DNA from: an uncultured Candidatus Saccharibacteria bacterium
GTDB lineage: Bacteria; Patescibacteriota; Minisyncoccia; Phycocordibacterales; JAKFXT01
NCBI GenBank assembly: GCA_964541455.1
Contig: CAZIPS010000005.1
Span: 1-59,468, forward strand
Direction: 5' to 3'
Length of the DNA stretch: 59,468 nt
Part shown: positions 1,989 through 44,185 of the stretch, piece by piece
How the letters are laid out: every line of letters starts with the position of its first letter
Position numbering within the stretch: position 1 is the stretch's first letter
Notes under the pieces: generated by a model
What the model saw: only the letters and a program-made list of their open reading frames with translations
What the model was told of the DNA's origin: nothing
Databases searched by the model: none
Made by a program: the position numbers and the translations under genes

Positions 1989-2017
1989 TTGACAGAAGTT
2001 TGTTTATGATGTATCAT
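1989..2017 (+). promoter_or_regulatory. Sigma70-type promoter of high-GC cassette A
   Basis: TTGACA (1989-1994), 17-nt spacer, TATCAT (2012-2017), about 30 nt upstream of the ATG at 2047. Confidence 0.6.
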
Positions 2018-2046
2018 CATGTCAGTCAACTTAGGAGGAGAGCGAC

Positions 2047-2343
2047 ATGCTCCCGGAACGCTTGGATGCAACCGCGCTTGCATGCCTCACCGATGTGGAG
2101 TACAGGCGCTCCAGAGACAAGGAGGGGCGTGTACTCCCATTGGCACTCGACCCAACACGGATGCGGATACTGGCAGTATTTCATGGCTCGTATGTGCTGC
2201 GACACGATGCCATTAACGCGTTCAAGAAAAGGCATGAGGCGCGCCTCGCGGTGCTCACACAACCAGAAAGGGTGCTTGAGTGGTATGAGTTTTTAGTACC
2301 TCTCTATAACATGCCCCCAGGGCTTGAGGAAAAGAAGCCCTAG
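2047..2343 (+). CDS. Hypothetical protein (98 aa), high-GC cassette A
   Basis: AGGAGG SD 8 nt upstream. The ORF ends 17 nt before a GC-stem terminator. Chosen over the overlapping frames 2000-2296 and 2019-2216 on SD and terminator placement. Confidence 0.55.
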   Translation: MLPERLDATALACLTDVEYRRSRDKEGRVLPLALDPTRMRILAVFHGSYVLRHDAINAFKKRHEARLAVLTQPERVLEWYEFLVPLYNMPPGLEEKKP

Positions 2344-2359
2344 CCGTTCCATCACCCCA

Positions 2360-2387
2360 CCCCCGCTTCGGCCGGGGGTTTTGTTTT
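2360..2387 (+). terminator. Intrinsic terminator (CCCCCGC-TTCG-G(C)CGGGGG plus T-run)
   Basis: GC stem at 2360-2378 followed by TTTTGTTTT. Confidence 0.75.
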
Positions 2388-2637
2388 ATCTATGCGTGCA
2401 CCCTGCCCAACAACAGGGGCGGCGCATACCGCCTTTCATTTTTGAAATCCCTTTTTTAATGCGAATGGCTCTGGTCTCAGCTTTTTTACCCGAAGTAACC
2501 CAACAGATCCACTCATTACGGGCAAGCGGGGTAATACTTTCCCATAAAGCCTGCACTGAGGGAGTCCTCGCAATTGCACCCCTTAAATCATCTGGGAGCC
2601 TGTGAATTATTCCTCCTTTTATAGTTTTTTCTGGCAT
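2386..2637 (-). CDS. YdeI/OmpD-associated (OmdA) family protein
   Basis: 83-aa ORF. LPDDLRGAIARTPSVQALWESITPLARNEWICWVTSGKKAETRAIRIKKGISKM followed by a C-terminal RRPCCWAGCTHR tail is characteristic of this family. Confidence 0.7.
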   Translation of the reverse strand: MPEKTIKGGIIHRLPDDLRGAIARTPSVQALWESITPLARNEWICWVTSGKKAETRAIRIKKGISKMKGGMRRPCCWAGCTHR

Positions 2638-2666
2638 TACTTTAATTATAGAGTAGAATTAGGGAT

Positions 2667-3308
2667 ATGCACATTCTTACTCAAAGATTAAATCGTGTTG
2701 GCTTTCTTTTCACTTTTTTAATCTTTAGTGTCATTGTCTTTTTAGTTAACTTCCTTATGAACTGGTTTATGGGAGGTGCAATACAGTCTCATCTTCAATA
2801 CATACTCGAAAAGCCAGTTGCGATTACCGTAAGTGTTACTGTCTTATTTTTCTTTTTCTCTATCATACGCGCACGCCTTCATGACCTAAACCATTCAGGA
2901 TGGTGGGCTGGTATGTATGTCCCCATACTTTTCGGTATTTTAAATTATTATTATCTTCCTGCTGTTTGTACACTTATACTCTTTGTTTCCCTCACACCGC
3001 TCCTTTTTAAAAAAGGAAGTGATAATGCAAATACATATGGAGAGCCTCCTGTACTTTCTAAATTCTTAAAGGTTACCTTTTTTTGTATTGTCCTTATTCC
3101 CGTGATTTTTAGCTCAATATTCTTTTATTTTTACCCACCCAAAGAAATATCTCGAGGGGGAGGGATTTTTATTCCTAACGAACAATTTGAGGTCTGTCGA
3201 GGATTTTACTTAGAAACATTTAACGCTACAGCTGTTGATGGGGGTGCTGGCGGATACTGTTTTGGAAAAGTTGAAACAGTTACTGGCCCAGCTACTCTTA
3301 CCCAATAG
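2667..3308 (+). CDS. DUF805-family membrane protein with a long C-terminal extension
   Basis: Multi-TM ORF carrying the RARLHDLNHSGWW signature of DUF805 (YhaH-like). At 213 aa it is about 90 aa longer than typical family members. Confidence 0.65.
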   Translation: MHILTQRLNRVGFLFTFLIFSVIVFLVNFLMNWFMGGAIQSHLQYILEKPVAITVSVTVLFFFFSIIRARLHDLNHSGWWAGMYVPILFGILNYYYLPAVCTLILFVSLTPLLFKKGSDNANTYGEPPVLSKFLKVTFFCIVLIPVIFSSIFFYFYPPKEISRGGGIFIPNEQFEVCRGFYLETFNATAVDGGAGGYCFGKVETVTGPATLTQ

Positions 3309-3430
3309 GCGGAAACTATACGGCGCCCCAAACGCCCTACATTGCACCGGTCCCACAAAACGCCGGCGCAACGGGGATGTATGAACCCCCGCGGATCATC
3401 TACTACTTCCACTGACACAACCCGCAACAC

Positions 3431-3452
3431 CCCCCGCTTCGGCGGGGTTTTT
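3431..3452 (+). terminator. Intrinsic terminator CCCCGC-TTCG-GCGGGG plus T5
   Basis: Stem 3432-3437 / 3442-3447, UUCG-type loop, TTTTT at 3448-3452. Confidence 0.75.
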
Positions 3453-3517
3453 AAATAATTGACATATAAAAAATAATATATCATTATTATAAAAGACAAA
3501 TTGCCACGGGAGGCAGC

Positions 3518-4099
3518 GTGAGTACTATATTCTGGCTCAACATGATTGGCGCCATCATCGGCTGCGGTTCAGCGATCGTGTATGGTGTGCGGATCTGGCT
3601 GGGTAAGGAGAAGGCTAACCTGGCTACCTGGACTATCATCCTCACTCTGGATGGCGTAGGGCTGTACCTCGCCTTCGCAACAGGCAATGACGAAGCCTAT
3701 ATCCAGATCGGTTGGTGCCTGGCAGCGCTGATGATTGTCATTGGCGCATGGAAACAGAAGGGTGATTGGGTTTGGACGGAAAATGAAACCCAGACACTCA
3801 TCCTCTGCATCGCATCGGTTGTGGTGTGGCTTATGAGCGAAGCGGTAACCTTTTCTCTTTTGGGGTATATCGCTGCAACAGCATTCTCGGTATGGCCACA
3901 GGCAAAGGACTATATCCGCGACCAAGTGATGGCACGCAAGAGTGCCTGGATTTGGCAAGTAAGCATTATTGCCATTGTTTTCCCAATCGCCGCAAAACTT
4001 TTGCAAGGGAAGTATGGTGCTGAACACCTGCTTCTCTATGGGTGGTTTCTGGTTCTCAACGTGTGCATGGCAGCCCTGTGTATGCGCAAACCAGAATAA
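3518..4099 (+). CDS. Hypothetical 6-TM membrane protein, high-GC cassette C
   Basis: 193-aa ORF with a GTG start. GGGAGG SD 4 nt upstream, TTGACA at 3459-3464 and a terminator at 4119-4143. Hydrophobic segments throughout. No family recognised. Confidence 0.6.
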   Translation: MSTIFWLNMIGAIIGCGSAIVYGVRIWLGKEKANLATWTIILTLDGVGLYLAFATGNDEAYIQIGWCLAALMIVIGAWKQKGDWVWTENETQTLILCIASVVVWLMSEAVTFSLLGYIAATAFSVWPQAKDYIRDQVMARKSAWIWQVSIIAIVFPIAAKLLQGKYGAEHLLLYGWFLVLNVCMAALCMRKPE

Positions 4100-4118
4100 G
4101 GCACCCATCATTCCTGTA

Positions 4119-4143
4119 CCCCCCGCTTCGGCGGGGGTTTTTA
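4119..4143 (+). terminator. Intrinsic terminator CCCCCCGC-TTCG-GCGGGGG plus T5
   Basis: Same hairpin core as at 3431 and 8988. Confidence 0.8.
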
Positions 4144-4152
4144 TATTAGAAA

Positions 4153-7434: not shown

Positions 7435-8049
7435 ATGCTCAAAAAAGCCTTAAAAGAGCTTAGTACACACAAACGTTTCGCCTCCCTTATTAAAAAATAT
7501 GGGAGACCAAAACTCAAACGAGGAAATGACCCTTTTAAAGCCCTTGTACGCTCGATTGTTTACCAACAGCTTTCAACTAAAGCGGCAGCTACTATTTATA
7601 ATCGTTTCCTTGCTCTTTTTAATAATGACGGAAAACACCCAACCCCAGCACAAATTTTAAATACACCGATTACCACTCTTAAATCCTCCGGTCTCTCTGC
7701 GCAAAAATGTAGCTATCTCCACGATCTTGCACTCAAGTTTACTGACGGCACCATACATGCTTCGTCACTTAAAACCATGAACAATGAGGAAGTTGTTGCT
7801 CATTTGACACAAATCAGGGGAATTGGTGAATGGTCAGTCCATATGTTTCTTATCTTTACCTTAAATCGACTGAATGTACTTCCAACAGGAGATCTTGGAG
7901 TACGAAAAGGATTTCAAATCGTATACAAATTGAAAACGCTTCCTGATAAGAAAACAATGTTAAAAAAAGCTGCGCCATGGAGCAACGAAGCAAGCCTTGC
8001 TAGTTGGTATTTTTGGCGGGTTGCTGATGAGGTTAAGTTAAAAAAATAA
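7435..8049 (+). CDS. DNA-3-methyladenine glycosylase II family (HhH-GPD, AlkA-like)
   Basis: IRGIGEWSVHMFLIF...LPTGDLGVRKG is a helix-hairpin-helix followed by the catalytic Asp. Confidence 0.8.
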   Translation: MLKKALKELSTHKRFASLIKKYGRPKLKRGNDPFKALVRSIVYQQLSTKAAATIYNRFLALFNNDGKHPTPAQILNTPITTLKSSGLSAQKCSYLHDLALKFTDGTIHASSLKTMNNEEVVAHLTQIRGIGEWSVHMFLIFTLNRLNVLPTGDLGVRKGFQIVYKLKTLPDKKTMLKKAAPWSNEASLASWYFWRVADEVKLKK

Positions 8050-8058
8050 TTAAAGCTT

Positions 8059-8087
8059 TTGACATCAACAAAAAAACGATGTATTGT
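8059..8087 (+). promoter_or_regulatory. Sigma70-type promoter of high-GC cassette D
   Basis: TTGACA (8059-8064), 17-nt spacer, TATTGT (8082-8087). Confidence 0.55.
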
Positions 8088-8134
8088 ATTGCCGGGCATT
8101 TCGCCCATTTTGCTGTTCTTCCAAGGAGAGATTC

Positions 8135-8980
8135 ATGAAAAGGTTTTTGCTCGGAGTCATCTGCTGCCTCTTGGCCATATCGGCAAATGGCGCAGTGGTG
8201 ACATCGCAATTCACGATAGACGTCGTGCCCTGGCTCGCGCCAAACGTCTTTGGCTCCCCCTCATTCGGGGCAGCAGAAGCGAACGCCGTGCAGGGCATTT
8301 ACGCCGGTGCTGCGACCTACGGCCCCGCCGGACCAGAACAGTTCAACAAAACCACGGGTCCTGTTTCAACTGCGGAAGTGGTGGTCACTGGCTTCACAAG
8401 CTGGAGGGGACAAATTGATCCCGGTACCAACTTCGGCACAGCCTATGCCAACGAACTTGGCAACCGCATGACCTTCGGCGTCAGGATCGAAGGACACAAC
8501 GGAGCACAATTCTCAATCGGCCAGATGGCGTTCAGCGCCACAAGTACTGACCCCTTCAACGCGTTGGCTTTCGGCTTCAATGCCGGAGCCTACAACTACG
8601 GCGCAGGCTACATCGGTATCCTCTACGGAACCGACGGAATGTTCGGCGGAGGAGATGACACGTTCATCACCTCAGGACCAAACAACCAGCTAGTTGACGC
8701 CTTGGTCGGGCGTGGTAGCGGCAACAGCTTCGCCGCCTACTGCAGCGGTATCTGCGACCAGATCGATCAACAGGCCGCGCTCGATGCGGTGGCAGCCTAC
8801 CCAGGGACCCCCTTCGAGTTCACCGGAACCTACCGGCTCATGGCGGGGACCCAGGTACTTGCCGTAGGAGAAGGCACATTCGAAATCGGCAACAACGTGC
8901 CAGAGCCCGGAAGTCTTCCCCTCTTCGGCGCTGCCTTCCTCGGCATCGCCGGCTTACGGATCATGAAACGAAAATCATGA
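8135..8980 (+). CDS. Secreted PEP-CTERM sorting-domain protein, high-GC cassette D
   Basis: Start set at MKRFLLGVICCLLAISANGA (signal peptide) with an AAGGAG SD 8 nt upstream. The C-terminus VPEPGSLPLFGAAFLGIAGLRIMKRKS is a canonical PEP motif plus TM helix plus basic tail. Confidence 0.8.
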   Translation: MKRFLLGVICCLLAISANGAVVTSQFTIDVVPWLAPNVFGSPSFGAAEANAVQGIYAGAATYGPAGPEQFNKTTGPVSTAEVVVTGFTSWRGQIDPGTNFGTAYANELGNRMTFGVRIEGHNGAQFSIGQMAFSATSTDPFNALAFGFNAGAYNYGAGYIGILYGTDGMFGGGDDTFITSGPNNQLVDALVGRGSGNSFAAYCSGICDQIDQQAALDAVAAYPGTPFEFTGTYRLMAGTQVLAVGEGTFEIGNNVPEPGSLPLFGAAFLGIAGLRIMKRKS

Positions 8981-8987
8981 TTCGCCC

Positions 8988-9014
8988 CCCCCCGCTTCGG
9001 CGGGGCTTTTGTTT
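8988..9014 (+). terminator. Intrinsic terminator CCCCGC-TTCG-GCGGGG plus CTTTTGTTT
   Basis: Stem 8990-8995 / 9000-9005. Confidence 0.75.
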
Positions 9015-9636: not shown

Positions 9637-10110
9637 CTACGGTGCTGGATTACACACTACCGCATTTGGGTCCGGGTAACGAAGTTTACAAGTATTATTC
9701 CATACCCCCTTATAATAGGGGCTACCTGAACATCCTCCCTCTTGAGAAACTTGTATGCAATATGCACTACCATTTGACGTATAGTAATAGATTTGTTCAG
9801 GGTTAACGCTATTAGTATCCGTCGGGATAATGGGTATATACGTAGGTGCAAGTCCTGTAATCCATGCCCCATTTGCCCCAGATACCCACCCCCCTCCTGT
9901 TGAGGGATATCCACCATTATCATTTCGATAAAGCTCAAGTGCAGTAACCATCTGACGAAGATCTGAAAGACGCTTAGTATCCCTACTCTTAAGTGTTGCC
10001 GTTTTAAGTGAAGACAATAAAATCGAAGAAAGAAGTCCGATAATCGACAGTACTACTAACAGTTCAATGAGTGTAAAGCCGCTCCTTTGTCCAATATATT
10101 TTTTCTGCAT
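9637..10110 (-). CDS. Type IV pilin / pseudopilin with prepilin-type N-terminal cleavage-methylation domain
   Basis: MQKKYIGQRSG|FTLIELLVVLSIIGLLSSILL is a class III signal peptide. The C-terminal domain contains Cys residues. Confidence 0.8.
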   Translation of the reverse strand: MQKKYIGQRSGFTLIELLVVLSIIGLLSSILLSSLKTATLKSRDTKRLSDLRQMVTALELYRNDNGGYPSTGGGWVSGANGAWITGLAPTYIPIIPTDTNSVNPEQIYYYTSNGSAYCIQVSQEGGCSGSPYYKGVWNNTCKLRYPDPNAVVCNPAP

Positions 10111-10111
10111 A

Positions 10112-10411
10112 TTATTTAAGTCCCATTGTTGCATGGATCTTTGCTTCCTCGTCTTTAGAAACTGTCGTTTTCATGGTGGGAGATGAAAATGTAGAAAACA
10201 ATACGATAACCATAAATGCAGAACACAAAAGTGCTACACCCGCTAACAGCTGATAAGCTTGATGGCCATTTTTTACGATACCCACCTTGAGTACCAAGTT
10301 AACAAGCGTAGGGACCTGTTCATCCCCTAAAATTTTCCTCGAAGTGAAGGGGCGACCGTATTCGTCAGTTTCTTGTAATTCAAGTTCTGCCATATCTAAA
10401 TATTTAATCAT
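10112..10411 (-). CDS. Small hypothetical single-TM protein directly upstream of the pilin
   Basis: 99-aa ORF. Its stop codon lies 1 nt before the pilin ATG. Confidence 0.45.
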   Translation of the reverse strand: MIKYLDMAELELQETDEYGRPFTSRKILGDEQVPTLVNLVLKVGIVKNGHQAYQLLAGVALLCSAFMVIVLFSTFSSPTMKTTVSKDEEAKIHATMGLK

Positions 10412-28431: not shown

Positions 28432-28447
28432 AGCGTTTGCCTCACCT

Positions 28448-28475: not shown

Positions 28476-28526
28476 ATTTATACTCCTTCTACCCCATAGG
28501 AGTCTCCTATGGGGTAAAAATGTAAG

Positions 28527-28561
28527 TAAAAAATACTACACTTTAGATGTAGTATTTTTTA
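28527..28561 (-). terminator. Intrinsic terminator of rpoD
   Basis: ATACTACA / TGTAGTAT stem with A-run and T-run flanks, 23 nt after the rpoD stop. Confidence 0.6.
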
Positions 28562-28583
28562 CTTAGTCTCTCTATTTTTTAAA

Positions 28584-29894
28584 TTAGTAATTCTGCAAAC
28601 GATTAGACTTCTGATGCTCACGAATCTTCTGGTGCGCCTTAGCTTCAATCTGGCGAATACGCTCACGAGTAACACCGAACTCACGTCCTACTTCTTCAAG
28701 TGTGTGAGTAATGCCATCCATAAGCCCGTTACGCATTTCTAGAATCTTACGCTCCTTTGGTGAGAGATCGTCAAGGATCTCTTTGACTTGATCAGCCAAA
28801 ATACGCTGCGAAGTTTCTTGATCTGGCGAAATAATTTTATCGTCCGCGATAAAATCTCCGAGCACCGAGCGACCATCATCATCCTCACTCCCTACTGGCG
28901 CTTCAAGCGACACGGTATCTTGGTTGATTTGTTCGATAGTATAGATCTTATCTACCTCAACTCCCATTTCAACAGCAATCTCCTCAGGTAGTGGGTCACG
29001 TCCCAAATCTTGTGAAAGACGGCGCACTACTTGTTTGTACTTAGCGATAGTTTCTACCATATGCACTGGGATACGGATGGTACGACTTTGATCCGCAAGA
29101 GCACGAGTAATAGCCTGACGAATCCACCACGTAGCATAGGTTGAAAACTTGAAGCCCTTGGTATAGTCGAACTTATCCACCGCCTTAAAGAGTCCAAGGT
29201 TCCCTTCTTGGATAAGATCAAGGAGGGTGAGGTCGGGACTGCGACCCACATACTTTTTAGCGATAGACACCACGAGACGGAGGTTGGCACGAGCAAGCAA
29301 GTTTTTGGCTTCTATGTCTTCCTCCACAATACGTTTTGCAAGATCGCGCTCTTCTGCTGCATTAAGGAGCGGATACTGCCCGATTTCCTTTAGATACATC
29401 TGAATAGAGTCATATGTATCAGAGGATGAGCCACCTTTATAACTATAGCGTTTATGTTCCTCTGGACTTGGTTCAATGTTAAGCATCCCTCCCCCTTCAA
29501 GCACATCGATGCCTGCCGTTTGGAACTTTTCGTATAATTCATCAAGGAAAGAAATATTCTCCTCAATTGTAGGGAACTCTTTTAGAATCTCATCATAGGT
29601 AACGAAACCACGCTCACGCCCCTTAGAGATAAGTGCATCTGACTTTTTCTGGAACTCCTGCTCTTTTTTCCCAAGTTTTACTGCAACCACCTTCGCTGGT
29701 TTTGCAGTTACCTTTTTAGCTTTGGGATGTTTGGCGAGCGTCTTTTTTACATTCGCTTTTTTTAACTTTTTGAAAAGTGTTTTCGTAGGCTTTTTTACCT
29801 TTGTCTTTGCAACCTTTTTGGTTGTTTTTGAGGGAGTTTTTTTCCCCTTTTTTACTACCTTCTTTTTAGCGGTCTTAGCGACTTTTTTAGACAT
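28584..29894 (-). CDS. rpoD: Primary-type sigma-70 factor with a histone-H1-like Lys-rich N-terminal extension
   Basis: Regions 1.2, 2 ([19 protein letters not shown]...[10 protein letters not shown]), 3 and 4.2 ([23 protein letters not shown]). The first about 78 aa are K/A/T/P-rich. Confidence 0.9.
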
Positions 29895-29942
29895 AGTGTG
29901 TATAGTAAGTTACTTTTTAAAATTTTAAAAGTCTTTTATAAT

Positions 29943-31685
29943 TTACGTTTTTGGTAACTCTTGGTTATTTTTCTTTATTGCTTCTTCGAGTAAGGCTATG
30001 TCTTTACTTAGTAACTGGTACTGTCGTATTTCTTTTTCTAAATTCTCTTTATCTCCCTCTTTTTCATACTCACCTATCAGTCTCTGCGTTTCTTTTGCTA
30101 CCTCTTTTTTAACTTCAAGCTGTAGCTCACGTAACAATTCCTTCACTACTTCGCCCCCCGGCCGCGGATCAATCATCATATCTGCCTTAAAAGATGCCTC
30201 TGTCACTGCAAGTGAATTATAGAACCGCTCTACCACCTCATCTCCAACTAGCGTCTTCACCTCCATAAGTACTTGGTCTTTATCTATATCTTCCCCCTCT
30301 TTCTTGCTCTCAAGGAAACCCAGAAGGTGACTCATGATCATGTCTTTTCGAGTGAGAAAGGCAGTACTTCCCACTTGCTTCTTTTCTTCTACTGCAACAC
30401 TCCCTGTAACATCTTTTGGTATACGCTTCATGTCTTCAATAAGTGCAGAACGTGGAATACCAAGCCGATTGGCAATCACTTCAATGAAGTGTTCTCGATC
30501 GACTGAGCTTTTAATCTGTGCCACATACGGCAATACACTTGTAGTTACTGCCAAACGAAACTTACGCTTATCGCTTTCTCGCAATGCAAGTACATCAAGA
30601 TAGAACTCGACAACGTGCTTACTACTTCTAATGATCTCTTTCCACTGCTCAACACTTTCTTTGACTATATCTGCCGGATCTTTGCCTCCCACAATATGTG
30701 CCACTTTTACATCAATCCCCTCCTGAAGTGCGAGTGAGGCACTTTTCCCAGAAGCAGTGAGTCCGGCAGTGTCAGCATCAAGCGAGAGTACGAGCCTGTC
30801 AGTAAAACGTTGCAACAAGGTGAGTTGGTCCTTAGTGAGCGCGGTTCCTGAAAGCGCTACTGTATTCGTAAACCCTGCCTGATGACTCATAAGGAGATCC
30901 ATTTGCCCTTCAACAACAATGGCGAACGTCCATTTACGTATCCCCTCTTTTGCCTTGTCGAAGCCGTAGAGTATATGAGACTTGTGATAAAGCGGTGTTT
31001 CGGGACTGTTCACATACTTAGCAGGAGTGCTATCACTTCCTTCAAGACTTTGATCGAAGATTCGTCCTGAAAAAGCAACCACTCGACCACTACTATCAAA
31101 GAGGGGGAACATGATGCGCCCTCTAAACCGATCGTAAGCTCCTTTCGGCCCCATTTTGGTTAATCCTGCTTTTTCAATAAGTGCAGGATCATAATTTCTA
31201 CTCACTAAGTAGTCAGAGAGTGCGCGCCATGAAGCCTTCGCATATCCAAGCTTAAACTTTTCGATGGTTTCAGAAGTAAGTCCTCGGTCAGTTAAATAGG
31301 TCTGTACCTCACTATGTTCTTTCAGAGTGTCGCGATAATAATTCATCGCTTCTTCAAGAATTAGGAGGAGCTCTTTCTTCTCATCCTTAGCCTCACTTTT
31401 CTCGAACGTAAGTGGTACCCCCGCTCTTTCAGCAAGCACTTTAAGTGCCCCACTGAAATCAATACCCTCAAAGCGTTGTACGAACTCAAAGATATCTCCC
31501 TTTGCCCCGCACCCAAAACAATAGAATGTATTACGCACAGGAGAAATAAAGAACGACGGTGTCTTTTCATTATGAAAAGGACAGCGCGCTTTAAAGTTAA
31601 TGCCAGCGCCCTCAATCTTTATATAAGAGCCTATGATCTCTGCTATGCCGAGACGCTCTTTGATTGCTTCGGTTGTTGTTGACAC
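29943..31685 (-). CDS. dnaG: DNA primase
   Basis: Zinc ribbon CPFHNEKTPSF...CFGCGAKGD and Toprim EGQMD...DADTAG. GTG start. Confidence 0.9.
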   Translation of the reverse strand: MSTTTEAIKERLGIAEIIGSYIKIEGAGINFKARCPFHNEKTPSFFISPVRNTFYCFGCGAKGDIFEFVQRFEGIDFSGALKVLAERAGVPLTFEKSEAKDEKKELLLILEEAMNYYRDTLKEHSEVQTYLTDRGLTSETIEKFKLGYAKASWRALSDYLVSRNYDPALIEKAGLTKMGPKGAYDRFRGRIMFPLFDSSGRVVAFSGRIFDQSLEGSDSTPAKYVNSPETPLYHKSHILYGFDKAKEGIRKWTFAIVVEGQMDLLMSHQAGFTNTVALSGTALTKDQLTLLQRFTDRLVLSLDADTAGLTASGKSASLALQEGIDVKVAHIVGGKDPADIVKESVEQWKEIIRSSKHVVEFYLDVLALRESDKRKFRLAVTTSVLPYVAQIKSSVDREHFIEVIANRLGIPRSALIEDMKRIPKDVTGSVAVEEKKQVGSTAFLTRKDMIMSHLLGFLESKKEGEDIDKDQVLMEVKTLVGDEVVERFYNSLAVTEASFKADMMIDPRPGGEVVKELLRELQLEVKKEVAKETQRLIGEYEKEGDKENLEKEIRQYQLLSKDIALLEEAIKKNNQELPKT

Positions 31686-31706: not shown

Positions 31707-34700
31707 CTAAAGAATATCTACAGGTTGTTGTGCTCGGTCGGCTTCTTTAGCTACTTCCGCTACTAATGCATGTTTATGAGATCCTTTGAACCCAGATCCT
31801 GCTGGAATAAGGCGTCCAATAATAACGTTCTCCTTGAGTCCCTTAAGATCGTCCGTACTTCCTTTAACTGAAGCACCGATCAAAATCTTGGTGGTATGTT
31901 GGAATGAAGCAGCAGAAAGGAAACTTTCACGAGTGAGCGACACTTCTTGGATACCCATTACCATTTGCTCTACCTTAGCCTCCTCGCCTCCGGTTGCTTT
32001 AACACGATTATTCTCTGCCTGAAGTGTTGCTTCACTTACAATATCCCCAACTACAAAAGCGGTGTCTCCACGGCTCTTCACCTTACGGCGTGAGAACATC
32101 TGACGGATAATGACTTCAATATGCTTACGTGAAATAGAAGCACCTTGGAGTTCATAAATCTTGGTAATTTCCTGAATGATATAATCCTCTGCTCGCTCAC
32201 GGCCTCCATACTTAAAGAGATCTGAAATATCAGCTGATCCATCAGTCAAAAGATCACCCTTCACTACCTTACTTCCAGGAGAGACGAGTGGCATACGACG
32301 GAAGTTCACTGTGTACTCGATCGCCTCACGGCCCTTACCCTTGCGTGCCTCAACTTCTGGCATCACCACAAGGATCTTCTCTTTTCCTTCGTTGCGGATT
32401 TCAACTACCTCACCATCAACAGTTGCAACAACGGCTGGATTCTTAGGCTCACGACGCTCGAACACTTCTTCAACACGTGGCAAACCTTGTGTAATGTCTC
32501 CACCAACTGAAGCAGTACCTCCCGCGTGGAACGTACGCATTGTAAGCTGTGTTCCTGGTTCACCAATCGCTTGCGCGGCAACAGTTCCAATAGCTTCTCC
32601 GAGATTTACCAATACTCCCGTTCCAAGATCTGCACCATAACAAGTAGCGCAAATACCACTTAGACTCTTACAAGTAACTGGAGAGCGTACTTTTACTTCA
32701 GCAACTCCTGCTTTTTCAATAGCTTCTGCATCTTTGTGAAGAATAAAATGTCCACGCTTAAAGAGTACTGTCCCAGAAGCGTCTTCCACATCTGCTACTA
32801 AGTGGCGTCCCTTAATGTTTTTCGCAAGTGGGATTTCGATTCCCGAAGCTGACTTTTTAGCAATGATGATACCTTCTTTAGTGCCACAATCATTTTCTGA
32901 AATCACAAGGTCTTGTGCCACATCGAAAAGACGACGGGTAAGGTATCCAGCTTTCGCAGTGTTAAGCGCTGTATCAGAAAGCCCCTTACGTGCTCCGTGA
33001 GTAGTAATGAAGTACTCAAGTGGTGTAAGACCTTCCTTGTATGATGAGAGAATTGGGAATTCAATAGTCTCTCCAGCCGTGTTTTGAATAAGCCCCTTCA
33101 TACCTGCCATCTGTGCCAAGTTACCAGTTGAACCACGAGCACCACTCTTCAACATATCCCATACAGAACTGTTTTTCTCAAGTGCTTCAGGGGTTGCCTT
33201 TTCAACATCGTTTTTAGCAGCGTGCCAAATCTCGATGTTCTGACGAGCCTTTTCTTCTCCTGAAAGAAGTCCTTCGTTGTACTCGTTAAGTACCTCTTCA
33301 GACTTTTTCTTAGCATCATCAATAAGCTTTTTCTTAGCATCAGGTACACGGATATCATCAATACTCCAAGTAATACCAGAACTTGTAACATACCTAAATC
33401 CAAAGGCCTTAATCTTATCGAGGATTCCAGGCACTGCATTTACTCCATAGCGATCAATCAAATCATCAATGATAGCAGTAATACTCTTACGGTCGATTTC
33501 CTTGTTGATAAATGGATAATCAGAAGGAAGCGTGCTGTTAAAGAGGAGGCGTCCAACTGTTGATTCAAACACGCGACCTTCGAACTGGGCGTACTTTGCT
33601 GTATCGGTTGGAAGAATTTTAACCTTAGCGTGGAATGATACTTCTCCAAAATCTGCTGCGGTAATCGCTGCATTTGGGTTAGCAAATATTTTCCCCTCAC
33701 CCTTTTCTCCCTCAACAATCTTTGTCATCCAATATGAACCAAGCACAATATCGAGAAGCTTAGTGATCACCACTGGTTCACCGTTTCCAGGCTTAAGAAT
33801 ATTCTTATCAGCTGACATGAAATTCTTAGCTTCAGCTTGTGCTTCTTCACCAAGTGGAAGGTGTACAGCCATCTGGTCACCATCGAAGTCAGCGTTAAAG
33901 GCAGGACACACAAGTGGGTGCACCTGAATTGCATTACCTTCAATAAGGATCGGCATGAATGCTTGAATACCCAAACGGTGAAGTGTCGGTGCGCGGTTTA
34001 GAAGTACGTACTTTCCATGAATCGCCTCTTCAAGAATTGCCCATACTTCGGGTATCCCCTCATCGATAAGACGATTAGCACCACGAATGTTAAAAGCAAG
34101 TTCTTTCTTCAAAAGCCCTGCGATCACGAAGGGACGGAAAAGTTCAAGTGCCATGTGCTTTGGAAGCCCACATTGGTTGAGCTTTAGATCAGGCCCCACC
34201 ACAATCACTGAACGCGCTGAATAGTCCACACGCTTACCCAAAAGGTTCTGACGGAAAAGACCTTGTTTAGTTTTGAGGTTATCTGCAAGCGACTTAAGAG
34301 GACGACGTTGTGCAGCTGAAATAGCTCCACCTGATGAACCACCATGCTTAATGGAGTTATCAATAAGTGCATCCACCGCTTCTTGAAGAATACGCTTTTC
34401 GTTACGAAGAATCACGTCAGGAGCGTTAATCTCCTTGAGTTTCTTCAAGCGGTTGTTACGGTTAATAACGCGACGATACAAGTCATTTAGATCACTCGTT
34501 GCATGACGCCCTCCTTCAAGCGCAACCATAGGACGAAGTGCTGGAGGAATAACAGGAAGACGAGTAAGGAACATCCATTCAGGGCGAAGTCCTGAACGAA
34601 TCATTGACTGGATAAGACTCATACGCTTTTGAAGTTTCTCGCGATCTGCGGCACCCGCCTTCTCAAGCAATGCTGCCACTTCAACACGAAGCTTCTCAAG

Positions 34701-35387
34701 GTTGATTGACTTACAAAGGTTGTATATTGCCTCAGCTCCAATAGAAGCTTCAAACATTGTTCCGTAACGAACAGAGAAACGATGGAAGGTTGCTTCATCG
34801 AGCACGCGCCCAAGAGTAATCGCTTCTATATCTCCCTTAGCAGAAAGAAGTAGCTCTTTTACCTTTTCCTTAGACTTATCATCTTGAAGTGATTTAATTT
34901 TATTTTTGTATTCAGCATCAAGATCACGCAAGATACGGTCGCGCTCATCTTGTACTACCTTTGTCACAATATAGCCAGCGAAATACACTACCTTCTCAAT
35001 ATCAGAAGCTCCGATACCAAGAAGAAGTGAGATGCGGCTTGGTACACCACGAAGGAACCACACATGTGACACTGGAGTACAAAGCTCGATATGCCCCATG
35101 CGCTCACGACGCACAATAGAACGAGTAAGTTCTACACCACATTTCTCACAGACAATACCCTTGTAGCGTATACCACGATACTTACCACAGTAACACTCGT
35201 AATCACGCTCTGGACCGAAAATTTTCTCATCGAAGAGTCCCGCCTTTTCTGGACGTTGGGTACGATAGTTAATGGTTTCTGGTTTTGTGACCTCACCATA
35301 TGACCAATCGCGAATCATGTCAGGAGACGCTAAGGTAATCTTCACAAGATCGAAATCATTTTGCTGTTCTCTTTTTATTGGGTTCAT
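31707..35387 (-). CDS. rpoC: DNA-directed RNA polymerase subunit beta'
   Basis: Zn-binding CYCGKY...CEKCG, the catalytic [12 protein letters not shown], and trigger-loop/bridge-helix regions. Confidence 0.97.
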
Positions 35388-38842: not shown

Positions 38843-38877
38843 AGTAAAAAACAAAGCCCGCGGGATTCCCCGCGGGC
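38843..38877 (-). terminator. Intrinsic terminator of high-GC cassette F
   Basis: On the minus strand: 9-bp GC stem GCCCGCGGG / CCCGCGGGC (38877-38856) around a GAAT loop, followed by TTTGTTTTTT. Confidence 0.8.
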
Positions 38878-38894
38878 TCGATGCCTAACTCCTG

Positions 38895-39944
38895 TCAGCC
38901 GGAAACGCCACTTGCCATCCTAAAGTCGGCTTCTGTTTCCCGGACCGCCGCCGCCCTAGCTTTCTCACTCAGAAGGCGCCTTTGGCCCTTGCGAATTGTG
39001 CGGATCTCCTGAAGGAACCGTCCTGCCTTTGATCTCGCCACCACGGCCTCCTCAAGAGTTTTGGCTGGCCTCGGCACCCTATCTAAGCACAGGTAATCAG
39101 GGAGTTTCGTCTGGAGTGCTATTTCGAGCAGTTTCGCCTCACATGCTTCGGACAGGTCAAGCATATAGGGACGGAGCAGATTGAGCTCGCCGATGTGGTC
39201 GAGAACTTCCACCATCCAGGGTTTTGCTACCTCGAGCTGCTCCCACTGCACGCTCATTGCCTGCTTTTCTTCTTCCTTCAGCCACGAGTCAAGTACAGGC
39301 GCGCGGATTTGAAAGAGGGTACGCGCCAAAGTACAAAGGAACTCGTGAACCTTCTTCGCTGTTGAGCTCCCCCTTTCGTGTCGAGCTGGAAAGTTGACGA
39401 AGCCCTCCTCAGGGTCGTTTCGGAAAAAGTGTTGAATCATCGGGAAAAGATCCCCGAGAATATGCCTTTCCCAAAAAGGGCTTAGGCCATGTCTCCCCTC
39501 TCCTTCTGGCGTTTGAGCAAAAACCTTGCTGGTCACAACATCAAGTGCCTTGCTTGCAACCATTCGGCGCAAGTCAGAAACCGATACCAGCTGTGGGTTG
39601 CCATTAGCGTCGCGGGCCATGGTGATATGCTTGTCAGAATCGCCCACTTCGCCCCTCATGAGACTGAAAGACGACCAACCATCTGCCACTCGCAAATAGA
39701 AGCCGGCCTTGTCCTTATATGCATACTCTTTCTCTGCGTAGTGACGACGCTGAAGTGGAACATCGAAGCCCGAGAGGAGGAGCCCCACCATCTCGTGGTA
39801 AGTAGCTCCATGCCAACGGACCAGCCACTCGTGCCAGTTCTTTGTAGGAAGAACCTTCCTTTTGTTGAGCGGGAGTATGCCGTCGATCAAAGCATTTTCT
39901 GCCGCAATGCGCTCCTCCACAACTCGATCAAAAAGTGACATCAC
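38895..39944 (-). CDS. Hypothetical protein (349 aa), high-GC cassette F
   Basis: Long clean ORF. TTGACA at 40041-40036 (minus strand), a purine-rich SD and its own terminator. No domain recognised. Confidence 0.65.
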   Translation of the reverse strand: MMSLFDRVVEERIAAENALIDGILPLNKRKVLPTKNWHEWLVRWHGATYHEMVGLLLSGFDVPLQRRHYAEKEYAYKDKAGFYLRVADGWSSFSLMRGEVGDSDKHITMARDANGNPQLVSVSDLRRMVASKALDVVTSKVFAQTPEGEGRHGLSPFWERHILGDLFPMIQHFFRNDPEEGFVNFPARHERGSSTAKKVHEFLCTLARTLFQIRAPVLDSWLKEEEKQAMSVQWEQLEVAKPWMVEVLDHIGELNLLRPYMLDLSEACEAKLLEIALQTKLPDYLCLDRVPRPAKTLEEAVVARSKAGRFLQEIRTIRKGQRRLLSEKARAAAVRETEADFRMASGVSG

Positions 39945-40048
39945 CTTACCCTACCTTTCCGGTTAAAACAGTTATGCCCCGCACTGTGACGGGACGAGGT
40001 ACTACCACTTCTTAAATTACTCCTTATATAGAGCGTGTCAATTAAGAC

Positions 40049-41189: not shown

Positions 41190-41234
41190 AAAACAATCCC
41201 TCCCTCGCCAAGGGCGAGGGAGGGATTGTTTTTA
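41190..41234 (-). terminator. Strong intrinsic terminator after rpsP
   Basis: Stem of 16 bp or more, CAATCCCTCCCTCGCC / GGCGAGGGAGGGATTG, with a T-run on the minus strand. Confidence 0.8.
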
Positions 41235-41238: not shown

Positions 41239-41643
41239 TTATGCAGCTACCTCTGCTTCAGTGGGTGCCTCTGCTTCTACTTGAGGAGCTTCGACCACCG
41301 GAGTCTCAACAGGGGCCTCTGCTACTGGAGTTTCTGCTTTAGGTGCCTCTTCTTTCACTTCCTTTACTGGAGGGGTCTTCTTTGGAAGTACATTTTTCTT
41401 TTTACCAGTAATAACTTTTTCTGACACCAAGAGATTATGCACCGTGTCTGTTGCTTGAGCTCCAACACTCATCCAGTACTTCACACGTTCAGCATTTATA
41501 ACTGGCTTGTTAAAACGTGGGTCATAGTTGCCAAGCACCTCAAGCACCTTACCACTTTTTGTAGAATTAAGACGGTCAGTCAAAACCACACGAAAATTAG
41601 ATTCGTGTTTGCGGCCAACGCGCTGTAGTCGTATTCGTAACAT
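41239..41643 (-). CDS. rpsP: 30S ribosomal protein S16 with a K/E/P/A-rich C-terminal extension
   Basis: Start placed at the ATG at 41643 (MLRIRLQRVGRKHESNFRVV, the canonical S16 N-terminus). The 71 upstream codons of the listed ORF are not protein-like. Confidence 0.9.
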   Translation of the reverse strand: MLRIRLQRVGRKHESNFRVVLTDRLNSTKSGKVLEVLGNYDPRFNKPVINAERVKYWMSVGAQATDTVHNLLVSEKVITGKKKNVLPKKTPPVKEVKEEAPKAETPVAEAPVETPVVEAPQVEAEAPTEAEVAA

Positions 41644-41908
41644 AAGGGGAACCTTACCAAAAAAGAAGCCTAAGGTCAAATAGCCCGGACATAAATATAC
41701 CCCATAACACACCCTACGCCCAAGGTAGCCCCTCCCTAAGGAAGCATTAAAAAAAAAGGGGCGACCTTCCCAGGTTACCCCTAATCGCTCATAGAACCAT
41801 GTTCGGGCTAAACGAATAGGAACGAGCCGCAAGACCTGTATCATAGCGCAAAACAAAAATTTGTATAGTCAATCCCCGTTTTCCATGCTACTCTGGTGCT
41901 CTATATAT

Positions 41909-43852
41909 ATGCACCCAAAACAGGCGAAAAAACCGACTGAAACCCTCGAGGGCACTATCTCAATCACCAGCAAAGGCGTGGGGTATGTTGCTATTGAGGG
42001 ACGTGAGGAAGATGTTGAAATTGCCCCTGAAAAAACAGGCGTTGCACTCCACGGAGACACTGTTCGTATCGCACTCATCGGTAAGAACTTCTACAACCGC
42101 GTAGTGGGTGAAGTGCTCGAAGTTATAGAGCGCCGAAAAACTCACTTCACAGGGAGCGTTATAAAAGATGGCAACCACACAGTGATTGTCGCTGACAATC
42201 GCAAAATTCACGTTGTTTTTGAAACAACTGACCCTGTTACTTTAAACACCAAAGTGTATTTTAAACTCATTTCATGGCGCCGCAGAGAGGATACTCCTAA
42301 AGTACGTATCCTTAAGGTAATCGGGGAAAAAGGAGATCACAATACCGAAATGGAATCGATCGTCCTCGACCGCGGTTTTTCCCCTACCTTCCCACCTGAA
42401 GTAGAGGCTGAAGCTGAAGCAATAAAAAGAGGGGCAGAAGCCGATCTTAAAGGAGAAGCTGCTAAACGCCGAGACATGCGTGGAACACTCACTATGACTA
42501 TTGATCCGTTCGATGCAAAAGACTTCGATGACGCGATTTCATTCCTCACTCTCCCAAATGGCCATTACGAAATCGGCATCCATATCGCTGACGTTTCGCA
42601 CTATCTGCAACATGGATCGCATCTCGACAAAGAGGCGGTGAAGCGGGCCACCTCCGTATATCTTGTAGACCGTACTATCCCTATGCTTCCTGAAATCCTC
42701 TCAAATGACCTCTGTAGCCTTAACCCAAATGAAGACAAGCTCGCTTTCTCTGCTATTTTTGAAATGGATACTACGGGGAAAGTCTATAACAAATGGTTCG
42801 GTCGCACGATCATTAACTCCACTAAACGTTTTACCTACGAAGAGGCACAGGAAAGCATTATTGGAAAAAGTGAGCTATACCGAGAAGAACTTACGATATT
42901 AAATACCATTGCCAAAAAACTCACTCTCGAAAGAACACGCAAGGGAGCCATCTCTTTCGAGCAGGATGAAGTTAAGTTTGTACTCAACGAAAAGGGAGTA
43001 CCCATCAAAGTTATTCGCAAGGTGCGCTTTGATGCGCACAAGCTCGTAGAAGAATTCATGCTCCTTGCTAATCGCGAGGTTGCCTTTTTCATAAACGAGC
43101 ACCATAAGAAAAAACATGGTGAGAAAGATACCCCTCTTTTCCTCTACCGTATTCATGATGTTCCTCATACAGAAAAAATCGCTGAACTGGCCCTTTTTGT
43201 AAAAGCACTTGGCTACGATTTACCTATCAAAGATACACATGTAACCGGTGTTGAATTAAATGCCCTTTTTAAACAGTTAGAGGGGAAGGCGGAAGAGATG
43301 ATGATTAAAACCGCTGCCGTACGCTCAATGGCAAAAGCGATTTATTCGGTGAACAATATTGGTCACTATGGTTTAGCGTTTGACTACTACACTCACTTCA
43401 CTTCCCCTATCCGCCGTTATCCTGATGTGCTCGTACACCGACTTGTTGCGGAGTATCTCGAAGGCAAGAAAATACCCCAACAAGAATTTGCCCGCCTTGA
43501 AAAACTTGCCTCAATCACCACCGAAGCCGAAATTCGTGCTGCGGAAGCAGAGCGTGAAAGTATAAAAATGAAACAAGTTGAGTACATGAGTACCCGCATC
43601 GGGCAAACCTTTGAAGGTACTATTTCAGGAGTTACTGAATGGGGAATGTACATAGAAGATAAGGAAACTAAAAGTGAAGGTATGATCCGCCTTAAAGACT
43701 TAACCGATGATTATTACGCACTCGATCAAAAGAATTATCGCCTCGTTGGAGAACGTACGAAAAAAACCTACGCCCTTGGAGACAGTGTAAAATTCCAAAT
43801 CATTGGCACCGACGTAGAACGACGCATGATCGATCTAAAGCTTGTAAAATAA
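41909..43852 (+). CDS. rnr: Ribonuclease R (RNB family, C-terminal S1 domain)
   Basis: OB/CSD region, RNB catalytic region (TIDPFDAKDFDDA, HYGLAF..YTHFTSPIRRYPD) and S1 domain. The listed ORF starts at TTG 41861; ATG 41909 (MHPKQAKK) is preferred. Confidence 0.9.
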   Translation: MHPKQAKKPTETLEGTISITSKGVGYVAIEGREEDVEIAPEKTGVALHGDTVRIALIGKNFYNRVVGEVLEVIERRKTHFTGSVIKDGNHTVIVADNRKIHVVFETTDPVTLNTKVYFKLISWRRREDTPKVRILKVIGEKGDHNTEMESIVLDRGFSPTFPPEVEAEAEAIKRGAEADLKGEAAKRRDMRGTLTMTIDPFDAKDFDDAISFLTLPNGHYEIGIHIADVSHYLQHGSHLDKEAVKRATSVYLVDRTIPMLPEILSNDLCSLNPNEDKLAFSAIFEMDTTGKVYNKWFGRTIINSTKRFTYEEAQESIIGKSELYREELTILNTIAKKLTLERTRKGAISFEQDEVKFVLNEKGVPIKVIRKVRFDAHKLVEEFMLLANREVAFFINEHHKKKHGEKDTPLFLYRIHDVPHTEKIAELALFVKALGYDLPIKDTHVTGVELNALFKQLEGKAEEMMIKTAAVRSMAKAIYSVNNIGHYGLAFDYYTHFTSPIRRYPDVLVHRLVAEYLEGKKIPQQEFARLEKLASITTEAEIRAAEAERESIKMKQVEYMSTRIGQTFEGTISGVTEWGMYIEDKETKSEGMIRLKDLTDDYYALDQKNYRLVGERTKKTYALGDSVKFQIIGTDVERRMIDLKLVK

Positions 43853-43872
43853 AGCGCCGCCCTTCTGGCGGC
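43842..43872 (-). terminator. Intrinsic terminator of high-GC cassette G (also abuts the rnr stop)
   Basis: GCCGCC / GGCGGC stem with a 5-nt loop, followed on the minus strand by GCTTTATTTTAC. Confidence 0.6.
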
Positions 43873-43877
43873 AGCTC

Positions 43878-44114
43878 CTATCGTCCGTGGGTGAACACCC
43901 CTTTTTCCTTGTAGCGATTTGCGTAAAGAAGCGCTTCGTCAAGCGGAAGCGGCGGCATGAACTCGACCTTTGTTCGGTCACCGCCACAGGTCGAATACCG
44001 CGAAACCTCCTCGCAATGGGTTGGCGAGACCATACTGATAGTCACTGACATGGTTGTGCCGCCCGCCTGTTCCTTGCCGAAAAGCTGCCCCAAAAGGGCC
44101 GTGATAAGTTCCAT
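43878..44114 (-). CDS. Hypothetical small protein (78 aa), high-GC cassette G
   Basis: AAGGAGAAG lies directly upstream of the ATG. TTGACA at 44182-44177 (minus strand). Own terminator. No domain recognised. Confidence 0.55.
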   Translation of the reverse strand: MELITALLGQLFGKEQAGGTTMSVTISMVSPTHCEEVSRYSTCGGDRTKVEFMPPLPLDEALLYANRYKEKGVFTHGR

Positions 44115-44185
44115 CGCCTTCTCCTTCTTGGAAGTTACGAAAATTCCGAAGTTAAGGATACCCTTTGGAACCTTGTTGTCAATTT

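Follow-up and report, generated by a model that had tools for sequence, protein, structure and literature searches.

How does a bacterium with a tiny genome and a dependence on its host come by new genes? For the Candidate Phyla Radiation (CPR, Patescibacteria), whose members combine both traits, the route to new functions is poorly understood. The question is raised afresh by contig CAZIPS010000005.1 (assembly GCA_964541455.1), whose 59,468 nucleotides, all of them analysed here and hereafter called the window, hold short GC-rich units set singly into the gaps between housekeeping genes. A preliminary description had picked out seven such segments, A to G, as six promoter-gene-terminator cassettes plus one segment, B, lacking an open reading frame (ORF). 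All seven were recovered in the current study, and an eighth unit, Z, which the description had overlooked, was found by scanning for ORFs led by a Shine-Dalgarno (SD) sequence. We consider it probable, at roughly 78%, that the units are horizontally acquired, autonomous single-gene transcription units resembling phage morons and residing in a Paceibacteria chromosome.

The setting of the units can be judged from the genes around them. RpoC, encoded at 31707-35387 on the minus strand, has its best matches in metagenome-assembled genomes (MAGs) of Patescibacteria/Paceibacteria (Parcubacteria), the closest being locus L013 (JBBTUX010000017) with 80% identity, followed by L014 with 76%. The order rpoD-dnaG-rpoC-rpoB-trmD-KH-S16-RNase R is kept between the window and related Paceibacteria genomes, and synteny with 80 Paceibacteria chromosomes confirmed the chromosomal setting. 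Among the larger ORFs, Pfam recognised housekeeping genes and surface genes typical of CPR, namely hisS, a UvrD-like helicase, sigma-70, a type IV pilin, VanY, a P-type ATPase, cohesin/Big_13 proteins and a giant protein of 3486 aa; the 42 backbone ORFs consist entirely of cellular housekeeping and surface genes. Given the RpoC matches, the conserved gene order and the cellular Pfam content, the window can be assigned to a Paceibacteria (CPR/Patescibacteria) chromosome. Not one ORF in the 59 kb matched an integrase, transposase or phage family in Pfam, in line with the earlier remark that the units stand without such a context. The units are listed below, with GC3 denoting the G+C fraction at third codon positions.

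Unit Z, 1012-1445, plus strand: promoter-like TAGACA-N16-TATTAT (1012-1039), SD GGAGG (1084-1088; -10.7 kcal/mol), ORF 1098-1370 of 90 aa, hairpin with T-run (1406-1445); GC 0.48, GC3 0.495.
Unit A, 1989-2392, plus strand: -35 box TTGACA (1989-1994), -10 box TATCAT (2012-2017), AGGAGG (2033-2038), ORF 2047-2343 of 98 aa (GC3 0.612), terminator with T-run (2359-2379), a one-base variant of the hairpin shared by B, C and D.
Unit B, 3309-3455, plus strand: 60% GC, starting at the stop codon of a DUF805 gene and ending with the shared hairpin (3432-3447) and a T-run.
Unit C, 3459-4147, plus strand: -35 box TTGACA (3459-3464), -10 box CATTAT (3482-3487), GGGAGG (3508-3513), multi-pass membrane protein of 193 aa (3518-4099; GC3 0.596), terminator with T-run (4120-4137).
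Unit D, 8059-9014, plus strand: -35 box TTGACA (8059-8064), -10 box TATTGT (8082-8087), AAGGAG (8123-8128), predicted secreted protein of 281 aa (8135-8980; GC3 0.680), terminator with T-run (8990-9005).
Unit E, 27945-28480, plus strand: TTGACC at 27945, TAGGAG (27976-27981), protein of 147 aa (27988-28431), terminator of nine G-C pairs with T-run (28448-28469); sited between the divergent gene for the UvrD-like helicase and the end of rpoD.
Unit F, 38843-40041, minus strand: -35 box TTGACA (40041-40036), -10 box TAATTT (40019-40014), hairpin motif in the 5' untranslated region (5'UTR; 39995-39971), SD region (39956-39942), orphan protein of 348 aa (39941-38895; GC3 0.586), terminator of 11 pairs, nine of them G-C (38879-38854); sited between the trmD stop codon (40049) and the conserved rpoB promoter.
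Unit G, 43845-44182, minus strand: -35 box TTGACA (44182-44177), -10 box TATCCT (44160-44155; promoter 10/12), AAGGAGAAGG (44126-44117), orphan ORF 44114-43878 of 78 aa (GC3 0.641), terminator (43873-43855).

The contrast with the surrounding genes is first of all one of base composition. The seven best maximal-scoring GC segments of the window (2034-2433, 3283-3447, 3503-4137, 8149-9006, 27947-28470, 38856-39837 and 43854-44103) are segments A to G. In the coordinates of the preliminary description their GC content is 0.50-0.60, against 0.429 in the remainder of the window, and for each of the seven no backbone window of equal length reached the GC of the segment. The hand counts on which the contrast had been founded (40/60 at 8221-8280, 35/60 at 39001-39060 and 19/60 at 7441-7500) were exact. 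The backbone itself had been called AT-rich, which it is only moderately: GC is 43.7% for the whole window and 42.9% outside the segments, that is, about 43%. Third positions separate the two classes more cleanly. GC3 of the six cassette ORFs is 0.586-0.680, whereas backbone genes average 0.366 (sd 0.033, maximum 0.427, n=42 genes), which places the cassettes at z-scores of 6.6-9.4. Since the difference is sharper at synonymous sites, amino-acid composition is ruled out as its cause. Codon usage leads the same way: pooled relative synonymous codon usage of the cassettes is uncorrelated with that of the backbone (r=0.05), and every cassette is nearer to other cassettes than to the backbone. The sharp difference claimed for the seven segments is therefore borne out by segment rank, GC3 and codon usage.

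It could be argued that such genes are native and vertically inherited, and that their GC content, SD sites and terminators are held in place by selection, either for mRNA stability or within an SD-dependent translation regime. Selection of this kind sits poorly with the highly expressed native genes rpoB, rpoC, S16 and the KH-domain protein, whose GC3 is an ordinary 0.35-0.41. We judge vertical inheritance very unlikely overall, and return to it below where relatives are compared.

Translation signals also set the units apart. The preliminary description had reported SD sequences of the GGAG type in the cassettes and their absence from most backbone genes, and this held well. Duplex energies with the anti-SD were -6.8 to -10.3 kcal/mol for the six cassettes, compared with a backbone mean of -1.5, and a site of -6.8 kcal/mol or stronger precedes 6/6 cassette genes vs. 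1/42 backbone genes (Fisher p=5.7e-7); in the lone backbone gene the matching stretch is really a -10 box. In eight of the 42 backbone genes a -10 box (a match to TATAAT of 5/6 or better) precedes the start codon by 6-8 nt, more often than at random positions, which gave 1.6 boxes on average and 5 at most, so these eight genes are probably leaderless. No cassette has a -10 box directly ahead of its start codon. Likely leaderless starts include 1504, 2637 (minus strand), 2667, 11799 (minus), 11866, 19008 (minus) and 19776. A backbone that is SD-less and in part leaderless agrees with the loss of the anti-SD motif reported for about half of Parcubacteria (PMC9297842). SD use in relatives was gauged by a crude best-of-three-starts measure, which is noisy and at most suggestive. 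These observations support the view that the units are compositionally and translationally foreign modules lying in chromosomal intergenic gaps.

Each cassette had further been credited with a promoter of its own. The (A/T)TTGAC(A/C) boxes are present at 1989, 3459, 8059, 27945, 40041 (minus) and 44182 (minus), as described. A consensus scan called promoters for A (11/12), for C, D and G (10/12) and also for Z; the claim thus stands for A, C, D and G, is doubtful for E, and for F meets a -10 box (TAATTT) that fails the scan, although the family to which F belongs conserves a TTGACA-N16-TAATNT promoter. As a hallmark of the cassettes the -35 box did not survive. The backbone has consensus TTGACA-N16/17-TATAAT promoters too, including that of rpoB (38817-38790, 12/12; TTGACA-N16-TATAAT, conserved in L013) and a site at 41145 (11/12), and since backbone genes use TTGACA promoters the box is no mark of foreignness. 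At the other end of the units, the 3' hairpins consist of perfect G+C stems of 6-11 bp followed by T-runs, and the A-G terminators rank at the top of the terminator-like sites in both scanned regions except for a backbone hairpin at 41190-41232. With a promoter and a factor-independent terminator of their own, the units would qualify as autonomous transcription units.

The terminators hold one further peculiarity. A search of the window confirmed that one 16-nt hairpin, CCCCGCTTCGGCGGGG, occurs exactly in B, C and D and with one mismatch in A, where about 0.01 occurrences would be expected by chance; the hairpins of E, F and G are unrelated to it. The idea that it is simply a terminator typical of the lineage was rejected, as it was absent from the loci of other genomes examined at that stage.

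Sharp breaks in composition at gene boundaries, in a contig of metagenomic origin, invite the suspicion that reads of a high-GC organism were chimerically joined into a CPR contig during assembly or binning. Exact-protein look-ups retrieved 13 contigs, drawn from six or more samples and independently assembled (SPAdes and MEGAHIT assemblies in ENA, and Logan), which match the window collinearly at 99.5-100% identity. Junctions of D recur in L001-L004 and those of E in L005-L012; both junctions of D are spanned by L001-L003 and both junctions of E by L005-L011, and the junction from trmD to F is spanned by L121. These contigs come from different samples and assemblers and repeat the D, E and trmD/F junctions base for base; they are themselves of low coverage (about 2-4x by contig names). 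Because independent assemblies from at least six samples reproduce them, chimerism is excluded for the D and E junctions. The breaks also match promoter and terminator signals, the neighbouring ORFs are intact, and it would be implausible for seven or eight chimeras to have arisen independently and each to fit an intergenic gap exactly. An artefact is scarcely credible as the source of the pattern.

A sign of insertion comes from F. Its position between the trmD stop codon and the rpoB promoter, as first described, was confirmed. In L013, the closest relative, F is absent from the orthologous site: the trmD-rpoB gap measures 249 bp there and 1452 bp in the window, the latter being the sum of F (1199 bp) and 253 bp that align with the L013 gap, rpoB promoter and leader included. 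Across relatives this gap varies from 125 to 3968 bp, has its minimal form in about 15 and is GC-rich in the window only. No strain-level empty site for F came to light: the exact trmD protein occurs on two contigs, and the one examined has the F junction. The empty-site comparison called for in the preliminary description thus gave a positive answer for F. Near rpoBC, E, F and G are absent from all 80 related loci. For E no clean empty site is available, because the relative lacks the neighbouring UvrD gene as well.

The F family is informative beyond this site. Only two homologues were found in an index of 5.8 billion proteins, one of them in the MAG that supplied L014, where it lies at another locus, after an ATP-synthase operon, with GC near that of the backbone. 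All three F genes have a TTGACA promoter, a 25-nt 5'UTR motif, an SD and a GC terminator. The motif, GTCCYGTCAYAGTRCGGGGCRTAAC (39971-39995 of the window, minus strand; also in L093, L097 and L122-L143), was the sole part of F detectable by blastn in other loci. An exact scan of metagenome contigs found it at 22 loci, at least 18 of which have the start of an F-family protein 16-27 nt downstream; the proteins are 30-46% identical, and a GC terminator follows where the downstream flank is covered (L093 and L097). There are 19 distinct leaders, on contigs of 34-62% GC. The motif folds into a 7-bp hairpin with G.U wobble pairs in its stem, and for this reason it would work only on the sense strand, at the RNA level. 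It has no Rfam match even at E<=10, and we regard it as a candidate for an undescribed cis-regulatory element or operator of an orphan family of ~350-aa proteins. The function of that family is not apparent from its members, as 0/15 match Pfam and the family profile finds no PDB sequence; an AlphaFold2 (AF2) model built from three sequences was poor, with a predicted local distance difference test (pLDDT) score of 59.7. The contexts sampled are chromosomal (penicillin-binding protein (PBP), pilus ATPase and ROK genes). In composition F genes are often off their host in either direction, GC3 being below that of the host in a 62%-GC contig and above it in genomes of 42-44%.

These comparisons bear on whether the genes could be native. 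It is in keeping with vertical inheritance that most occurrences of the C and F families are in CPR-like contexts and invariably in the same cassette layout, that the F leader is kept in hosts ranging from 34 to 62% GC, that similar islands are found in many Paceibacteria, and that D and E are fixed in all sampled strains. Against this stand the absence of F from the orthologous site of the nearest relative, the different loci of the F family in each genome, and the two-way deviation of F-family GC3 from the host, which is a pattern of transfer and not of selection for high GC. The best named matches of D and E, moreover, lie in Gram-negative phyla, and the distribution is very patchy (two homologues of F in the 5.8-billion-protein index, 33 representatives of C among 1.8 billion proteins). 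Atypical GC3 and codon usage, patchy distribution and, for F, absence at the orthologous locus are what would be expected of horizontally transferred genes.

Is the pattern peculiar to this chromosome? In 1.47 Mb of related loci, GC islands scoring at least 12 numbered 33, or about one per 44 kb, compared with five in the 59 kb of the window. Those inspected (L034, L044, L056, L071 and L086) comprise one gene or a few genes in a row, with GC3 values of 0.62-0.80, TTGACA promoters and GC terminators; an SD is present in about half, and several encode signal-peptide-like N-termini. Several lie directly downstream of rpoD, the position of E. The 80 related loci suggest that the single-gene cassette pattern may be general in Paceibacteria. 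Variable and often GC-rich content recurs at two spots, downstream of rpoD (E in the window, and L034, L044, L071 and L013) and in the trmD-rpoB gap (80 loci). In L044, a related Paceibacterota contig, an element of ~130 bp with inverted repeat arms TCCGCACACCAACT...AGTTGGTGTGCGGA lies directly 3' of both GC islands (2418-2550 and 19250-19402); neither the window nor any other locus compared contains it.

The islands and the cassettes also have an odd codon usage in common. AGG makes up 28% of Arg codons in the cassettes of the window and 22% in the islands of relatives, but 5-6% in Paceibacteria backbones, whether AT-rich or high-GC (p=3e-9 and 1e-7). This observation points to a common donor class or to a gene pool outside the sequences compared. 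Leu-CTC is likewise preferred, and the unusual pattern is seen in A, D, E and F and in islands of L034, L044, L071, L086, L119 and L144. An attempt to name the donor by codon usage failed: correlations were moderate with every high-GC reference tried (r = 0.35-0.62), and the AGG usage fits none of them.

The proteins encoded by D and E give a more specific indication of origin. The D protein has a predicted signal peptide and a putative C-terminal PEP-CTERM anchor with the VPEP-transmembrane-basic motif, scoring 24.7 bits for PF07589 (cutoff 20.7) and 19.7 bits for TIGR02595 (cutoff 16). No exosortase is visible within the window. Its AF2 model (pLDDT 92) is beta-rich with several helices, one of them an N-terminal signal-like helix, and has no meaningful match among PDB folds (TM-score at most 0.34). 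Its homologues number 205, the named ones coming from Acidobacteriota, Aquabacterium and Minisyncoccota. Their contexts include EpsI/polysaccharide-export loci on contigs of Gram-negative type with 53-62% GC, and a homologue in a Paceibacteria genome of 55% GC has a composition native to that genome. The closest homologue (64%) is on a short contig, L144, where two GC-rich cassettes for PEP-CTERM-type proteins stand in tandem with AT-rich spacers between.

The protein of E combines an orphan N-terminal part (residues 1-72) with an RNA polymerase alpha C-terminal domain (CTD; residues 77-139, PF03118, 3e-21). The latter is 70-71% identical to RpoA of the Burkholderiales/Neisseria type, i.e., betaproteobacterial. 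An identity as the RNA polymerase alpha subunit itself was rejected, given the presence of the CTD only, without PF01193 or PF01000, and a score of 83.9 bits with equivalog models against a cutoff of 302. By its domain content E is predicted to be a stand-alone alpha-CTD protein and not RpoA. Genes for such proteins were found on contigs of 62-65% GC beside EpsI/HxlR genes, and more distant ones in viral contigs. In L008, the most divergent of the strains, 99.5% identical to the window over the 27908-31589 interval compared, all 20 single-nucleotide polymorphisms (SNPs) fall in rpoD/dnaG and none in the 530 bp of E, where ~3.6 would be expected. With 0 of the 20 SNPs in E, the strain hints weakly at a younger age for E than for the sequence around it.

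The C family is rare, as noted, and its best homologue, P0229 (54%), is on a CPR-type contig, L119, after a PBP gene, in a GC-elevated two-gene unit with a TTGACA promoter, an AGGAGG SD and a GC terminator; no relatives of C were found in metagenome contigs of the Joint Genome Institute (JGI). The proteins of A, G and Z are orphans. That of A had no match in Pfam, PHROG, NCBIfam or PADLOC and no phage or viral relative, that of G no family, phage or viral match, and that of Z no Pfam match. As the composition of Z is intermediate between backbone and other cassettes, Z is probably an older, partly ameliorated acquisition. G occupies the gap between the stop codons of RNase R (43852) and of a gene for a 709-aa surface protein (44186), the close fit that had been described. 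Unit B, rightly said to lack a convincing ORF, has no ORF with a start codon and no promoter. A frame offset from that of the DUF805 gene is open for 39 codons (3296-3415), would encode a Pro/Tyr-rich peptide and ends just before the terminator. A known RNA was considered for B and rejected, Rfam giving no match at E<=1. B may be what is left of the 3' end of a displaced GC-rich gene, or else a 3'UTR/terminator of foreign origin that now serves the DUF805 gene.

With these affinities in hand, the origin proposed in the preliminary description can be weighed. It had suggested recent acquisition from a high-GC donor, possibly a host. The foreign composition supports acquisition, and the data single out neither one high-GC donor nor a host as the donor. 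Outside identities are at best 64% (D), 54% (C) and 30-46% (F), the closest relatives of C and F and probably of D are in other CPR or CPR-like genomes and not in an identified host, and a Gram-negative affinity is seen only for D and E. Because no near-identical donor sequence is at hand, the word recent rests on un-ameliorated composition alone. A phage or plasmid origin was pursued and rejected: with A, C, D, F and G, no match came from PHROGs, PADLOC, IMG/VR or a tblastn comparison with phage and plasmid records, and the sole phage or viral lead is that of the distant alpha-CTD-only proteins in viral contigs, for E.

The sites of insertion raise the question of mechanism. In D, F and G, 3-9 nt separate the stop codon of a co-oriented gene from the start of the unit, and the following promoter or a convergent stop lies immediately beyond its far end. 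The preliminary description had allowed for a process of cassette mobilisation, and such a process could take the form of an integron-like, MITE-like (miniature inverted-repeat transposable element) or terminator-targeting element, or of decayed prophage morons, with the hairpin or the unit ends as recombination sites. Several observations would suit it: the hairpin confined to A-D, the regular start of D, F and G just past a stop codon, the recurring spots downstream of rpoD and in the trmD-rpoB gap, the appearance of the same gene families at differing loci, the inverted-repeat element after both GC islands in L044, and the AGG-rich codon usage common to cassettes of different genomes. The window itself, however, gave this idea no support. 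It has no gene for an integrase, transposase or phage protein, and neither a target-site duplication nor a terminal inverted repeat was found at any cassette; a k-mer search at both junctions of all eight units detected no flanking repeat of 8 nt or more except the terminator hairpin shared by B and C. Perfect G+C stems with T-runs are ordinary terminators, unlike the imperfect repeats of the attC type, those of E, F and G are unrelated to that of A-D, and the L044 repeat is missing from the window. Finally, nothing closely related to A, C, D, F or G was found among viral contigs, phage records and plasmids. We therefore consider dedicated mobilisation unlikely.

As an account of the transfer without such a system, we propose that the units belong to a flexible pool of genes that would be exchanged among Paceibacteria genomes and would draw ultimately, at least for D and E, on Gram-negative bacteria. 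DNA would first be taken up by natural transformation or by an unseen vector. Transformation is suggested because competence pili are common in CPR and have been proposed as an uptake route (PMC12455944), and because the window has a pilin gene of its own. The DNA would then be inserted by illegitimate recombination. Lastly, a survivorship filter would operate, by which inserts are kept if they are self-expressed and land between transcription units, right after the stop codon of a co-oriented gene and ahead of the next promoter; in so compact and leaderless a genome, only such inserts would be expressed without doing harm. With its own 5'UTR and SD, a terminator and mostly a promoter, a gene would be both expressible and insulated in an SD-less, often leaderless genome. 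Here we infer from the sequence that promoters and SD sites are used, when and in which direction each transfer took place, and what each gene does.

Horizontal acquisition of autonomous units has several points to contend with. The scan makes no promoter call for E, which has no acceptable -10 box after TTGACC. The SD sites may be non-functional relics if the organism is without an anti-SD, the 16S rRNA gene being outside the window. The fixation of D and E in all sampled strains of the species sits less well with acquisition, and a clean empty site is available for F alone, the sites of A-D, G and Z falling outside the loci of relatives. For none of the cassettes did a nearly identical donor sequence turn up (best identities 64%, 54%, 55% and 46%). 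The identical hairpin of A-D, and the AGG-rich Arg usage in common with other Paceibacteria islands, go unexplained by independent, assorted donors. Lastly, in the absence of a target duplication, a terminal repeat and a recombinase, the mechanism of insertion has left no signature. These points weigh against the proposal.

Among known systems, the closest likeness is to the phage moron, an independent transcription unit within a phage or prophage genome ('The moron comes of age', PMC3594210). As in morons, a single gene comes with its own promoter and factor-independent terminator, the composition is unlike that of the neighbours, the two flanking genes adjoin each other in a related genome (shown for F only), and the cargo is accessory, often surface or regulatory proteins. 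The units described here differ in lying in a CPR chromosome among rpoBC, rpoD, dnaG, trmD and hisS, in a window without phage genes; the cassette proteins have no PHROG matches or close viral relatives. They differ also in density, with eight units in 59 kb, and in being SD-led amid leaderless genes. The units would thus have the autonomy and the foreign composition of morons, and they do not reside in a phage.

Individually transferred genes are common in Patescibacteria, mostly between Patescibacteria and from diverse donors (PMC12455944). Our units have in common with these the gene-by-gene transfer into streamlined CPR genomes. The transfers of that study were detected by phylogeny and IslandViewer at the level of genes, and promoters went unmentioned. 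In the literature we found no description of cassettes built in this way, of how they contrast with leaderless backbone genes, or of recurrent hotspots. Single-gene transfer into Patescibacteria is a known process, and what the window most likely adds is its moron-like cassette form, which is unusually clean here.

Other mobile elements are further removed. Classical islands, insertion sequences (IS) and MITEs differ from the units, which measure 0.15-1.2 kb and are without flanking repeats or a recombinase. Integron cassettes are promoterless, end in attC, stand in arrays beside intI/attI and are expressed from Pc. The units resemble them as small single-ORF modules of foreign composition with related cargo in different genomic places; unlike them, they come with expression signals of their own, lie dispersed over 42 kb, end in plain terminator hairpins and have no integrase. 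With their own expression signals and neither attC nor intI, they are not integron cassettes, a comparison that draws on hairpin shape and a Pfam search. As for the cargo, D resembles the PEP-CTERM/exosortase proteins of Gram-negative bacteria in its predicted signal peptide, C-terminal motif and the EpsI/polysaccharide-export loci of its homologues, and differs in being encoded in Paceibacteria, with family members in other Minisyncoccota MAGs. E is like other stand-alone alpha-CTD proteins in matching PF03118, short CTD-only proteins being known from Proteobacteria-like and viral contigs; it differs in its orphan 72-residue N-terminal part and in adjoining rpoD-dnaG-rpoC-rpoB in a CPR genome.

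A few features of the backbone deserve mention. The type IV pilin gene is at 9637-10134. The 3486-aa ORF (48556-59016, minus strand) has only faint YadA-head and Kelch matches and adjoins the Big_13- and cohesin-domain proteins (44186-47201), and a comparable cluster of giant-protein, cohesin and dockerin genes lies beside the D homologue in a high-GC Minisyncoccota locus, L098. The hairpin at 41190-41232, a perfect stem of 20 bp (AAAACAATCCCTCCCTCGCC...GGCGAGGGAGGGATTGTTTT) between the promoter region of the KH-protein gene and the S16 gene, has the backbone's composition and resembles a terminator that works in both directions. A tRNA gene truncated by the window edge has its 3' part at 1-53 (Rfam RF00005, 33.7 bits); ARAGORN found no complete tRNA in the window.

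A bolder reading is possible, if rather doubtful: a Paceibacteria-wide pool of GC-rich, AGG-rich, SD-led cassettes, inserted without a recombinase at few spots, might serve these episymbionts as a toolkit for interaction with their hosts, the F leader hairpin controlling its orphan family. In that case the cargo might be enriched in host-type proteins, such as PEP-CTERM and other secreted proteins and the betaproteobacterial-type RNA polymerase alpha-CTD, and the cassettes might use SD initiation while native genes are leaderless.

Whatever the role of the cargo, the window shows gene gain at the resolution of single genes, with whole expression modules placed among housekeeping genes and recognisable by three independent signals, namely GC at synonymous sites, SD-led vs. 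leaderless initiation and G+C-rich terminators. It also raises the question of whether acquired genes use SD-dependent initiation in a lineage often reported to be without an anti-SD. The putative PEP-CTERM surface protein and the betaproteobacterial-type alpha-CTD beside the RNA polymerase genes offer leads to the hosts of Paceibacteria. If the pattern is general, the accessory and possibly host-interaction genes of uncultured CPR bacteria could be listed from sequence alone.

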